A DNA stretch of 64,000 nucleotides. Origin: an uncultured Spirochaetota bacterium. Lineage in GTDB: Bacteria; Spirochaetota; Spirochaetia; SZUA-6; DRHE01. The stretch spans positions 105,918 to 169,917 of the forward strand of contig CAVTQG010000061.1 in NCBI GenBank assembly GCA_963736785.1, in the 5' to 3' direction. Shown one piece after another: positions 59,209-61,516 of the stretch (position 1 is the first letter of the stretch; the number at the start of each line of letters is the position of its first letter). The notes under the pieces were generated by a model, which was not told the DNA's origin, did no database searches, and saw only the letters and a list, made by a program, of their open reading frames with translations. A program made the translations under genes and the position numbers.

Positions 59209-59472
59209 ATGGCAGAAATCGCAACGACTAAGATGTCCTCCAAGGGTCAGGTAGTTATACCGGAATACATCCGAAAACGCTTGGGGCTAGGATCAGGATC
59301 CCAGTTCGTGGTTGTAGGGGAAAAGGACACGGTGATCCTAAAGACAATCTCGCCGCCCAAGATGGAGGAGTTCAATAAGCTTTTCCGGGAGGCACGCAAA
59401 CAAGCAAGACGGGCTGGCCTAAAACGATCTGACGTTAGAGCAGCTATTGCCAAGGTCAGAAAACAGAAGTGA
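59209..59472 (+). CDS. AbrB/MazE-family antitoxin
   Basis: TTKMSSKGQVVIPEYIRKRLGL. Confidence 0.88.
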   Translation: MAEIATTKMSSKGQVVIPEYIRKRLGLGSGSQFVVVGEKDTVILKTISPPKMEEFNKLFREARKQARRAGLKRSDVRAAIAKVRKQK

Positions 59473-59810
59473 AAATCGTATGGTATGATCGCAAAGTCGA
59501 CCTCGTGATTTCGCTCGAGATCCTAGATGAGTATCAGCGGGTAGCGGAAGAATTGGCGCAGGAATTCTCCGGTGTTGACGTCGCCAGGATTCTGGATCTT
59601 CTCACGTTTGGTGCAGAAATAGTCCACGCCCCGCCACTGCCGGAACCCGTTTGCAGCGATCCCGAGGATGACAAGTTCTTGGCGTGTGCTGTCGCCGGTT
59701 CTGCCAAGTACGTTGTCACCGGAGACAAGCAGCTGCTAAAGGTTTCCAGACACGGGAACGTGGAGATCGTCAACCCAAGATGGTTCATCGAATCGCATCT
59801 CGGCAGTTGA
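59469..59810 (+). CDS. PIN-domain toxin, apparently lacking the N-terminal DTN motif
   Basis: GTGA overlap with the antitoxin; CSDPEDDKFLACA, VTGDKQLL; begins MKIVWYD. Confidence 0.8.
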   Translation: MKIVWYDRKVDLVISLEILDEYQRVAEELAQEFSGVDVARILDLLTFGAEIVHAPPLPEPVCSDPEDDKFLACAVAGSAKYVVTGDKQLLKVSRHGNVEIVNPRWFIESHLGS

Positions 59811-59879
59811 GCGTTGCAAGCAGCAAATAGAAGGGTGACTGCACTCCTGCGGCCACCCTTGGCGTCTTTCGGGTATTGC

Positions 59880-59913
59880 TCCCCGGTATTAGCCCTTAGG
59901 GGAATCGAACCCC
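59880..59913 (-). repeat. tRNA-3'-end-like att repeat, copy 1
   Basis: Minus strand GGGGTTCGATTCCCCTAAGGGCT, i.e. T-arm plus acceptor-like sequence. Confidence 0.75.
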
Positions 59914-60096
59914 TGAGGAGAAATGACTTCACCATCAAGCTCACCTTCAAACTTAAACCTGCCAAGGCAATGATCAGTTCGTCCGGGCGAGGCCAATGGC
60001 AGCGCCTGCATTTGACGACTGTGCTGGACACCAAAGTTCTGCCCCGAGATGGATCTTGACGCCGCCTGCAACCTCGTATATATTAGGAATATACAA

Positions 60097-60420
60097 ATGA
60101 CTGCATCCGTGTTTGAGCACGTAGATGGCTTTGACTGGGACTCTGGCAACAGCGACAAGAATTGGAGGAAACATCGCGTTCATTCTTCAGAATGCGAGGA
60201 GATTTTCTTCAACGAACCCTACTACGTCACGGAGGATGCCGGTCATTCCAGAACAGAGCAGCGTTTCTATCTGTTGGGAGTCACAAACGCCGGGAGGCGC
60301 CTGTTCGTTGTGTTCAGCATTCGTAACAAAAAGATCCGTGTCATCTCCGCAAGAGACATGAGTCGCAAAGAGAGGGATGTTTATGAGGACCTTAAAAAAA
60401 ATGCCGAGAATCAACAATGA
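60097..60420 (+). CDS. brnT: BrnT-family toxin
   Basis: FDWDSGNSDKNWRKH, HSRTEQRF, IRVISARDMSRKER. Confidence 0.9.
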   Translation: MTASVFEHVDGFDWDSGNSDKNWRKHRVHSSECEEIFFNEPYYVTEDAGHSRTEQRFYLLGVTNAGRRLFVVFSIRNKKIRVISARDMSRKERDVYEDLKKNAENQQ

Positions 60421-60712
60421 AGATCGGGAACGTGTCTTCTGGAGCCGGAATGACTCCACTGAGTACGTTGACTATTCCAAGGCAAGCAAAGCCTTTTTTC
60501 CCAATCTCAAGCCGAGCACTAAGACCATATCCATTAGGCTGCCGGAGGGTCTTCTCGTGCGTCTGAAATTGGCGGCCAACAAACGGGATATCCCGTACCA
60601 GAGCCTGCTCAAGATTTTTCTCTCCGAGATGCTTGAAAGGGAGTCAGCCAATACGAACAGGGCGGTCTCTGTAGTCAGGAAGCCGGCTTCGGAAGTAAAA
60701 AGAAAAGGGTGA
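60383..60712 (+). CDS. brnA: BrnA/CopG-family antitoxin
   Basis: FPNLKPSTKTISIRLP, KRDIPYQSLLK; overlaps brnT. Confidence 0.85.
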   Translation: MRTLKKMPRINNEDRERVFWSRNDSTEYVDYSKASKAFFPNLKPSTKTISIRLPEGLLVRLKLAANKRDIPYQSLLKIFLSEMLERESANTNRAVSVVRKPASEVKRKG

Positions 60713-60750
60713 GCGCAATATTGCCGCCACCTCTTGGGTTTCGGGCATTG

Positions 60751-60784
60751 TCCCCGTCTTTAGCCCCTAGGGGAATCGAACCCC
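60751..60784 (-). repeat. tRNA-3'-end-like att repeat, copy 2
   Basis: Minus strand GGGGTTCGATTCCCCTAGGGGCTAAAGACGGGGA. Confidence 0.8.
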
Positions 60785-60914
60785 GATCAGGCCGGCGTTT
60801 GCTAATTCATCTCAGCTTCAACCTTGACTCTGGCGGCCGCAGAATCAGAGTTCTCGCGAGCAGCTTTTCGATTGACCATTTTCAATATGTATGTTATATG
60901 TATGGGTAGAACAG

Positions 60915-61187
60915 ATGAAGGTGACATGGGATCCGTTGAAGGCAAGAGCGAATCTCGCAAACATGATGTTCGTTTCTCTGACGCCGAATCTGTTTTTTTT
61001 GATCCCGGAGCTCTTACCAGGGAGGATGAGTATGCCGAGGGTGAACAGCGATTCGTCAGCGTTGGCGTCGATTCCTTTGGTCGCGTTCTCACCGTCGTGT
61101 ATTCACTATCAAGGGGAGGACATCCGGATGATCTCGGCTCGCCAAGCCACAAGATCGGAGAGAAGAGCCTATGAAGAAGGAATACGA
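60915..61187 (+). pseudogene. Second BrnT-family toxin (frameshifted, stop codon lost)
   Basis: MKVTWDPLKARANL / KHDVRFSDAESVFFD...EQRFVSVG / IRMISARQAT across three frames. Confidence 0.75.
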
Positions 61188-61425
61188 TTTCAGCAAGGCC
61201 AAACGGGGAGCTGTGATCCCCCAGTCGGGAAAAACTCAGCAATCACCATTTACATCGATGACGATGTGCTTGAGGACTTTCGAAAGTCGTGCCGACGAAG
61301 AAGGTCGGGGCTATCAGACGATGATGAACGAAGCGCTGCGAGAATACCTTGGGAAAGCCAGACACCCGCTAGATGAGGAAGCCCTGCGCCGAATTATCCG
61401 TGAAGAACTCAAAACTGTGAGTTGA
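61171..61425 (+). CDS. Second BrnA-family antitoxin (compensating frameshifts)
   Basis: MKKEYDFSKAKRG, ITIYIDDDVL (other frame), GYQTMMNEALR. Confidence 0.75.
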   Translation: MKKEYDFSKAKRGAVIPQSGKTQQSPFTSMTMCLRTFESRADEEGRGYQTMMNEALREYLGKARHPLDEEALRRIIREELKTVS

Positions 61426-61484
61426 TCTCGGACCGCCCGCCCGGTCCGCTTCACTGGTCAAAACGCGTCGTTGAGCCTATGCTA

Positions 61485-61516
61485 TCCCCGTCTTTAGCCT
61501 CTAGGGAAGGAAAGCC
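61485..61516 (-). repeat. tRNA-3'-end-like att repeat, degenerate copy 3
   Basis: TCCCCGTCTTTAGCC identical to copy 2; the T-arm part has diverged. Confidence 0.6.

Follow-up and report, generated by a model that had tools for sequence, protein, structure and literature searches.

Toxin–antitoxin minicassettes between copies of a tRNA-Glu(CTC) 3' end in a spirochaete: the probable outer part of an island stacked by serine-recombinase insertion

The DNA analysed here (hereafter the window) is a stretch of 64,000 nt from a spirochaete of soil or sediment, and it corresponds to positions 105918-169917 of contig C61 in the metagenome-assembled genome (MAG) G000, which is 70% complete. At 59194-61600 it contains three co-oriented toxin–antitoxin (TA) operons with a repeat after each of them. 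We consider that a composite island probably grew by successive site-specific insertions of elements with a large serine recombinase (LSR) into the 3' end of the single tRNA-Glu(CTC) gene, and that this region is its distal portion and the oldest one, including minicassettes that have no LSR and keep both arms of the attachment (att) site. The relatives of the window found by pattern search are MAGs of Spirochaetota, one of which belongs to the Microflora Danica set, and a scan of metagenomes for the repeat plus its flank gave nine contigs. In what follows, O is the 25-nt tRNA end, X the flank of ~65 nt towards the tRNA 3' side, at lower window coordinates, and P the flank of ~60-80 nt towards the tRNA 5' side; J1, J2 and J3 are the three repeat junctions, and tRNA orientation means the minus strand.

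A repeat finder located three direct copies at 59880-59913, 60751-60784 and 61485-61518, and this, together with Pfam analysis, agrees with the initial annotation, in which three direct repeats with spacings of 871 and 734 nt had been seen after three TA pairs. The repeat cores lie on the minus strand at 59889-59913, 60760-60784 and 61494-61518. The 23-mer GGGGTTCGATTCCCCTAGGGGCT was found without mismatch at 60762-60784 and with one mismatch at 59891-59913, and no chance match to it was expected from 100 shuffles. On the minus strand, repeats 1 and 2 are the last 25 nt of tRNA-Glu(CTC), GGGGTTCGATTCCCCTAGGGGCTAA, with one and zero mismatches respectively, and repeat 3 has diverged (GGGGCTTTCCTTCCCTAGAGGCTAA). 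An intact tRNA-Glu(CTC) whose 3' end is O was found on contig C6 of the same genome (86897-86970), in a tRNA-Gln(CTG)/tRNA-Glu(CTC) pair; the genomic match for which the initial annotation had asked therefore exists, and its identification of the repeat as a tRNA-Glu 3' end is correct. The tRNA-Glu(TTC) of the window itself (2072-2145) differs from the repeat at 3/23 positions (5/25) and was ruled out as the source. No tRNA was called at 59000-62000 by ARAGORN or by the Rfam tRNA model. O is not a dispersed repeat in G000: apart from the array and the tRNA itself, genome-wide BLAST and fuzzy searches detected only a degenerate copy at C6:89377-89401. Across the order, the O site was present in 68 of the 92 genomes searched, and as a single copy in 65 of these.

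The cassettes, as the initial annotation had supposed, are discrete: two of them recur directly behind an intact tRNA-Glu in contigs L129 and L132 and in G001, a genome of the same genus, and are bounded there by the same 25-mer. The filled site of L129 reads tRNA-Glu - O - (X3, BrnA2, BrnT2, P2) - O' (2 mismatches) - X_a - LSR remnant, where BrnT2 and BrnA2 are the genes of the third cassette (features are listed below), and the unit in parentheses, of 0.66 kb, is 84% identical to window 60760-61428. The empty site is on C6 of G000, where tRNA-Glu - O - X_a - LSR follow one another with no insert and both flanks are 87-89% identical to those of L129. In L132, cassette 1 stands directly behind the intact tRNA (85-91% identity), and G001 has a deleted AbrB-PIN remnant at the same tRNA-adjacent place. 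The tRNA is intact beside the inserted units. This comparison of presence and absence between contigs indicates units inserted at O. The neighbours of BrnT2-BrnA2 are non-orthologous: in L129 they are the tRNA and X_a-LSR, and in L128 and G000 they are P3 and either X_b-LSR or cassette 2; the same ends in two lineages with such different neighbours suggest an inserted unit rather than a chance product of deletion.

Four further contigs, L128, L130, L131 and L136, are 95-96% identical to window 60697-64000, which covers J2, cassette 3, J3 and a MalT-like gene. They leave the window exactly at the distal edge of X2 (60697), beyond which they have, in place of cassettes 2 and 1, an LSR remnant or a different 5-kb island; the cassette content of close relatives thus differs right at a junction. 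L131 also overlaps L135 by 1709 nt at 99.9%, and the joined path leads from tRNA-Glu to the J3/J2 array over about 14-15 kb with five directly oriented sites. It starts with intact tRNA-Glu - O - X - (lipoprotein, LuxR-type STAND regulator, DUF2817) - J3-type site - X, continues with (HicA cassette) - P - O - X_a - recombinase remnant, and ends with (aminotransferase ... MalT-like) - P3 - O3 - X3 - BrnTA2 - P2 - O2 - X - recombinase remnant. An intact tRNA beyond the array on the minus strand had been predicted, and it is present in this related population, about 14-15 kb away, whereas in G000 the tRNA is on the other contig, C6. The idea that all units are minicassettes did not hold, since the related arrays also contain islands of 5-8 kb and recombinase remnants.

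Behind the intact tRNA-Glu of G000, C6:86900-96968 contains a truncated recombinase, then the degenerate site at 89377-89401 and a second recombinase fragment, and further on an IS3-type orfA (90685-91122, identified by eye) and an AbrB-like gene (92534-92909); this segment is a second part of the same hotspot. Contig ends lie within about 2 kb of tRNA-Glu(CTC) in roughly a dozen of the 92 assemblies, consistent with an insertion hotspot that varies among strains and is beyond what assemblers can resolve.

An order-wide search gave close LSR homologues in five genomes, and in four of the five (G006, G008, G009 and G000:C6, representing four genera) the gene abuts or overlaps the 3' end of tRNA-Glu(CTC). 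It is full-length in G006, where it is intact, and in G008, where it has one in-frame TGA; remnants were found in G009, G000:C6, L128, L129 and L135. The LSR of G006 (L045 2824-4374, minus strand) has 516 aa with the domains Resolvase PF00239, Recombinase PF07508 and Zn_ribbon_recom PF13408. It is placed directly behind tRNA-Glu on the opposite strand, and its stop codon falls inside the tRNA. X was absent behind tRNA-Glu(CTC) in those families of the order that have no LSR, indicating that X comes from the element, as the last ~25 codons of the LSR gene, and is not the native trailer of the tRNA; X as a native tRNA-Glu terminator was ruled out by the same absence. Translation of the complementary strand gave LSR C-termini for the arms of J1, J2 and J3. 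The X1 frame (NRRVTALLRPPLASFGYCSPVLALRGIEPL) is identical to the C-terminus of LSR P0007 at 24/30 positions (E=9e-14), and for the X2 frame the C-terminus of LSR P0018 gave a match of 44 aa with 48% identity (E=1e-10), the match of J2 to P0018 running across O into P. The homology on both sides of the repeat that had been noticed earlier is real, with P-arm similarities against shuffles of p=0.0005 for J1-J2 and p=0.015 for J2-J3, and its source is the 3' end of an LSR gene.

A search for LSR homologues gave 3746 of them, and C-termini were examined in 46 of the top 120. A short form ends in ..LAPRGIEP(L/R)F(E/G)E and a stop codon 48-51 aa past a GERKLL motif and reads into tRNA-Glu, and a long form ends 81-87 aa past this motif and has the conserved motifs F.I.V.Y.L..YY and YS..Y..L. 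Omnitrophota homologues of ~45% identity have a shorter tail with the first motif present, and distant members read through other tRNAs (..PGFEPG.. and ..EGIRTP..). The two forms, seen in L045 2824-4374 of G006 and in proteins P0001-P0068, indicate that the attachment site lies within the LSR reading frame. The diverged third site was then understandable: the long tail at the C-terminus of LSR P0009 was matched by the complement frame of O3, LSPSLASREGKPQVPELRIHVRYDLGACY (E=3e-7), and O3 is an element-side (attP-type) site and not a decayed copy of the tRNA. J3 as a decayed full tRNA was rejected: a MAFFT alignment was suggestive, but there was no Rfam tRNA hit, local alignment against shuffles gave p of about 0.1, and the divergent part matches the long recombinase tail instead. 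The similarity of the P arms to the 5' half of the tRNA was not significant either (p of about 0.1-0.6, shuffles).

The cargo of the intact G006 element, at L045 4480-7400, comprises what looks by eye like an Xre-type helix–turn–helix (HTH) gene, a HigB toxin next to a small HTH-like gene, and a gene resembling Gp49/RelE together with its partner; additional pairs of small genes lie on the opposite strand. Elements of this LSR family appear to carry TA genes typically.

On these observations we propose the following mechanism. A unit, in tRNA orientation, consists of X - cargo - P, and successive units are joined by O. X and P are the two sides of the att site of the element and together form the 3' end of the LSR gene, with X giving the last ~25 codons before O and P the tail beyond O. 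In autonomous elements the LSR gene stands immediately behind the tRNA and is read from the opposite strand; the three units in the window would have lost the body of this gene and retained X, the TA operon and P. Insertion would swap the tRNA 3' end for the copy brought by the element and leave the displaced end at the far side. The whole tRNA would be rebuilt each time and the target regenerated, so that the newest unit would stand beside the tRNA and the older ones would be pushed outward. The LSR is most likely the enzyme, judging from its position at the site; the small cassettes would move as units, and resident sites could presumably be reused. Most likely, the minicassettes were inserted or carried by the LSR of a full-length element, in trans or together with a neighbour. 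The earlier proposal of serial integration at a tRNA by a trans-acting integrase is therefore retained with respect to the tRNA-derived sites, and modified in that the likely enzyme is an LSR borne by the elements.

The features of the region are as follows, in order of window coordinates.

59194-59208, plus strand: left edge of the inserted block, where, 15 nt ahead of the AbrB ATG, synteny with G001 and homology with L132 are both lost; only the ribosome-binding site (RBS) AGGAG is left.
59209-59472, plus strand: cassette 1 antitoxin, AbrB/MazE-type (Pfam PF04014, E=7.9e-6).
59469-59810, plus strand: cassette 1 toxin, PIN_3 (PF13470, profile positions 28-114 only).
59825-59888, minus strand: X1 arm, remnant of the last ~25 codons of an LSR gene, with a hairpin directly after the TA operon.
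59889-59913, minus strand: O1, copy of the 3' 25 nt of tRNA-Glu(CTC) with 1 mismatch.
59914-59990, minus strand: P1 arm of cassette 2, related to the P arm beside the tRNA-end copy in L135.
60056-60084, plus strand: promoter-like site of cassette 2, TTGACG-17-TATATT, 10/12 consensus matches, 12 nt before the ATG.
60097-60420, plus strand: cassette 2 toxin, BrnT (PF04365, E=1.8e-24).
60377-60712, plus strand: cassette 2 antitoxin, CopG/BrnA type (CopG_antitoxin, PF12441, E=1.3e-28).
60697-60759, minus strand: X2 arm, recombinase-tail remnant and hairpin; homology with L128, L130, L131 and L136 begins at 60697.
60760-60784, minus strand: O2, identical to the last 25 nt of tRNA-Glu(CTC) at 25/25 positions.
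60785-60861, minus strand: P2 arm of cassette 3, which accompanies BrnT2-BrnA2 in every context seen.
60906-61174, plus strand: cassette 3 toxin, BrnT (BrnT2; weak PF04365), frameshifted in the assembly at AAA and GGGG runs.
61171-61425, plus strand: cassette 3 antitoxin, BrnA (BrnA2; PF14384), frameshifted in the assembly.
61426-61493, minus strand: X3 arm, short recombinase-tail remnant and hairpin after the BrnA stop codon.
61494-61518, minus strand: O3, diverged site GGGGCTTTCCTTCCCTAGAGGCTAA, resembling the element-side (attP-type) version; the same type of junction occurs at L135 3801-3940.
61519-61600, minus strand: P3 arm, end of the neighbouring larger element, with the tail motif of long-form recombinases.
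61646-64000, plus strand: MalT/LuxR-like STAND regulator (AAA_16/AAA_22), cargo of the neighbouring element, frameshifted in the assembly at AAA and GGGG runs.

Pfam and open reading frame (ORF) analysis found only TA genes between the sites, with no recombinase or transfer genes, and no recombinase was found on contig C61, in line with the earlier remark that no integrase is nearby. The adjacent genes belong to type II TA families: MazE/AbrB with PIN_3, BrnT with CopG_antitoxin, and BrnT with BrnA. The AbrB-PIN and BrnT-BrnA families of the initial annotation were thus recovered, but the PIN gene has a 66-nt deletion, the antitoxin of cassette 2 is of the CopG_antitoxin family and the third pair is frameshifted in G000. 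All three operons end 0-20 nt from the X hairpin. Each of the two X types has retained this hairpin, and between them two of its pairs differ in a compensatory way; these differences represent few independent events, and the folding energies were not unusual. Repeats of this kind were found at the AbrB loci of none of 60 other genomes, where one tRNA and one stray T-arm-like motif were seen. These 60 loci answer the concern that the repeats might be elements of the TA families themselves, an explanation that is rejected. Exact-sequence look-ups with the CopG and AbrB proteins gave no match.

The same-genus contig G001:C97 matches the window up to 59192 and the L132 homology begins at 59194; the promoter/operator region upstream of cassette 1 in L132 differs from that of the window. 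Cut just upstream of the RBS, cassette 1 has no promoter and no outer att site, so that the proposed composition of a cassette (promoter, TA pair and att site) does not apply to it. Its antitoxin DNA is 91% identical to the L132 copy beside the intact tRNA-Glu. An in-frame deletion of 66 nt in the PIN gene removed LDTNVLVSGIFFAGAPYEILKA, including the N-terminal catalytic Asp, which the L132 copy retains; the window reads VKIVWYDRK where L132 reads VKIVLDTNVLVSGIFFAGAPYEILKAWYDRK. This deletion is real, unlike the homopolymer frameshifts, and the PIN toxin of G000 is predicted to be inactivated. The genes of cassette 2 are intact, and its P1-related arm is found in L135, where 2692-2740 contains ATGACTTCATCATCCAGCTCATTTTCAG.

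For cassette 3, P2 is 99% identical in L128, L130, L131 and L136, and 84% identical in L129, where it lies beside the second tRNA-end copy. Intact ORFs for BrnT2 were found in L128 (101 aa) and L129 (90 aa), and for BrnA2 (83 aa) in both. Since the 101-aa and 83-aa ORFs are intact in short-read contigs of 95% identity, the frameshifts of cassette 3, and with them those of the MalT-like gene, are probably errors of long-read assembly. In G000, frameshifts cluster at short homopolymers in several genes, in window 60906-64000 and C6:87000-88300, and the short-read contigs of close relatives are intact where G000 genes are frameshifted. The G000 assembly thus has systematic indel errors, and pseudogene calls in it need care. 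The neighbouring element with the MalT-like cargo ends, at its far side in the joined L131+L135 path, with a recombinase remnant and a tRNA-end copy. Synteny did not define a right-hand edge, as the MalT-like gene is represented in G001 and G003 by nothing closer than paralogues of 68-70%. The array of G000 is probably inactive and partly decayed, given that the LSR copies found are truncated (copy 1 lacks residues 1-42 and with them the catalytic serine; copy 2 is fragmentary), that PIN is predicted to be inactivated and that cassette 1 is cut at its promoter. The addictive nature of TA genes may explain the persistence of the array.

Several points weigh against stacking by an LSR. Canonical serine integrases recombine attP with attB only, and the reuse of a site beside a resident element is assumed here from the rebuilt tRNA and from the precedent of the staphylococcal cassette chromosome (SCC). 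No intact LSR was found in G000, a MAG of 70% completeness. The array and the tRNA are on different contigs in G000, no overlapping sequence of C6 and C61 was found, and a rearrangement at C61:173681, together with the contig ends, breaks the link between them; in the relatives the link from tRNA to array runs through two overlapping contigs from different samples. Among the 92 genomes of the order, G000 is the only one with extra copies of the O fragment, from which it follows that arrays are rare or poorly assembled. Finally, the first nucleotides of the identity block are precisely those of the T-stem 5' strand (GGGG TTCGATT CCCC), the classical position for a tyrosine integrase; Williams, in 2002, is reported to have given the T-loop as the classical position of these enzymes in tRNA.

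This last point could be explained by a tyrosine integrase encoded elsewhere, of a trans-acting, P4- or tycheposon-like kind, which would use the T-arm core of tRNA-Glu and would have built the array, with the LSR as frequent cargo. Tandem insertion is routine for such enzymes, and tycheposons are mostly tyrosine-recombinase elements (10.1101/2020.12.28.424599). We regard this as quite improbable. For G000, a search for PF00589 gave nothing on C6 or C61 and a single fragmentary match on contig C21 (the MAG being 70% complete), and no tyrosine recombinase was noticed in ~60 kb of related arrays, the ORFs of which were read by eye and some of them scanned with Pfam. Moreover, in four genera the site is fused with the LSR gene, the frame of which spans it in hundreds of homologues. 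An integron-type array, a cluster of attC sites without an integrase in which the likeness to a tRNA end is fortuitous, shares with the window the size of the cassettes (0.7-0.9 kb), their co-oriented TA genes and a repeat after every gene pair. Inverted core pairs of attC, R''(RYYYAAC) ... R'(GTTRRRY), were however found on neither strand at 59001-61800, with RYYYAAC absent from the plus strand altogether; no IntI-type tyrosine recombinase was present on C6 or C61, the C21 fragment being the sole PF00589 match. The repeat is 25/25 identical to a resident tRNA, cassette 2, the one cassette scanned positively, has its own predicted promoter, and the cassettes stand directly behind the tRNA in relatives. 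The integron-like system put forward initially is refuted by these tests, and its probability is close to nil.

A more serious alternative is that full-size LSR islands in tandem at tRNA-Glu were eroded by random deletions, that TA genes were kept because their loss is toxic, and that the small units never moved by themselves. Every cassette has a vestige of a recombinase gene, recombinase remnants of many lengths are found in L128, L129, L135, G050 and C6, and decay is evident in the in-frame PIN deletion, the truncation of cassette 1 and the deleted AbrB-PIN of G001. Against this, the compact ends of BrnT2-BrnA2 (X3 ... P2) are equal in two lineages of 84% identity with non-orthologous neighbours, and random deletions would not make three operons all stop 0-20 nt from the X hairpin. 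We therefore think erosion alone unlikely, and stacking by LSR insertion, with minicassettes that would move as units, is the reading we prefer.

The closest published case is that of the ssrA islands of Dehalococcoides, which lie in tandem downstream of a tRNA-like (tmRNA) gene and in which a direct repeat of ~20 bp, taken from the 3' end of this gene, delimits every island (McMurdie et al. 2011, PMC3146451). The predicted integrase, a CcrB-like LSR, is encoded beside attL in reverse orientation, the elements insert into the T-loop region, and about half of the islands have no integration module and were proposed to be cis-mobilizable (PMC3146451). The arrays described here share with them the tandem units, the repeats of the end of a tRNA-like gene, an LSR on the opposite strand, the T-loop region and members without a recombinase. 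They differ in the target, tRNA-Glu(CTC) in Spirochaetota, in units that shrink to TA operons of 0.7-0.9 kb, and in a recombinase reading frame that crosses the att site. Neither a second small serine recombinase nor a six-gene integration module was seen among the ORFs inspected; behind the LSR in L045, where an Xre-type HTH gene and TA pairs were read by eye and the TA genes were scanned with Pfam, no second recombinase ORF was noticed.

In SCC and SCCmec, serine recombinases (CcrAB or CcrC) direct insertion at the 3' end of the conserved single-copy gene rlmH, the target is regenerated, and elements stack with direct repeats; some stacked elements are without a recombinase, sizes are 3-60 kb, and two recombinases are often needed. 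To our knowledge, neither sub-kilobase TA-only cassettes nor an att site inside the recombinase ORF has been described for SCC. Insertion at a gene 3' end by a serine recombinase (here the likely enzyme), the rebuilt target and head-to-tail stacking are common to both, but the target here is a tRNA and not a protein gene. Compared with SCC- and ssrA-type islands, the LSR is also at the target-proximal end on the opposite strand, as seen in relatives (4/5 genomes) and not inside the window, and the target is again the 3' end of a gene in single copy, as judged from the site counts given above. The cis-mobilizable elements (CIMEs) related to ICESt1 and ICESt3 of Streptococcus thermophilus are att-flanked, have no recombination or transfer genes of their own and stand in tandem with an autonomous element at the same site; they are several kb long and depend on a tyrosine integrase acting at the 3' end of fda. 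The units described here are similarly bounded by direct, target-derived att copies, have no recombinase or transfer genes and share their site with a cognate autonomous element. Unlike CIMEs, they have a tRNA as target and a serine enzyme as candidate, and their mobility is putative.

In the tycheposons of Prochlorococcus, repeated insertion at one tRNA pushes older elements outward and leaves partial tRNAs and fragmented integrases scattered, and 27/937 elements carry an LSR (10.1101/2020.12.28.424599). Most tycheposons, however, use tyrosine recombinases and carry replication genes, and minimal two-armed TA cassettes are not described there (10.1101/2020.12.28.424599). Integrons and clusters of attC sites lacking integron-integrases (CALINs) resemble the array in that small cassettes, in many cases TA pairs, follow one another in the same orientation and a recombination site closes each of them; the array differs in lacking IntI, attC structures and a shared Pc promoter, in a tRNA-derived site, and in having as its likely recombinase a serine enzyme borne by some of the inserted elements and not by a fixed platform.

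Tandem accretion islands at tRNA or tRNA-like genes are thus already known. What is new is the sub-kilobase TA-only unit that keeps both arms, the LSR frame that crosses the site, and tRNA-Glu(CTC) as the target in Spirochaetota; it is not a new class of integron. A single tRNA gene in uncultured spirochaetes appears to gather and reshuffle accessory genes such as TA pairs and regulators, and a role can be suggested for a family of serine recombinases that read into tRNA genes in several phyla. The array documents units of less than 1 kb that have both att-site halves and no recombinase; if such units can be moved in trans, tRNA ends would be cassette-capture sites comparable to integrons with a different enzyme. 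For annotation, it accounts for tRNA-fragment repeats and for the frequent contig breaks beside tRNA-Glu(CTC).

The split reading frame of the recombinase also offers a testable idea for the control of direction, which we put forward tentatively. With the att site inside the gene, as in this widespread family of tRNA-targeting LSRs, integration might switch the LSR between two forms. The free or tandem (attP) form would encode an extra C-terminal tail of 30-40 aa, conserved in motifs and length, and insertion at the tRNA would replace this tail with four tRNA-encoded residues (..RGIEPLFEE and stop). No additional directionality factor would then be needed, as the switch itself could determine which way recombination runs; minicassettes with X, O and P around a TA operon might be working substrates, and the tRNA a platform for gene capture parallel to the integron.

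Two minor observations may be added. A 1.2-kb segment of the window (57457-58652) with a 215-aa ORF on the minus strand (57575-58222) is missing from G001:C97, which is otherwise syntenic with flanks of 87-89% identity; this is probably an indel between species. In L100, from an Anaerolineae MAG, an AbrB-PIN pair at 3001-4069 is convergent with tRNA-Glu(TTC), which lies an estimated 350 nt or so past the end of PIN, and this layout is the same as at tRNA-Glu(CTC) of the spirochaetes.

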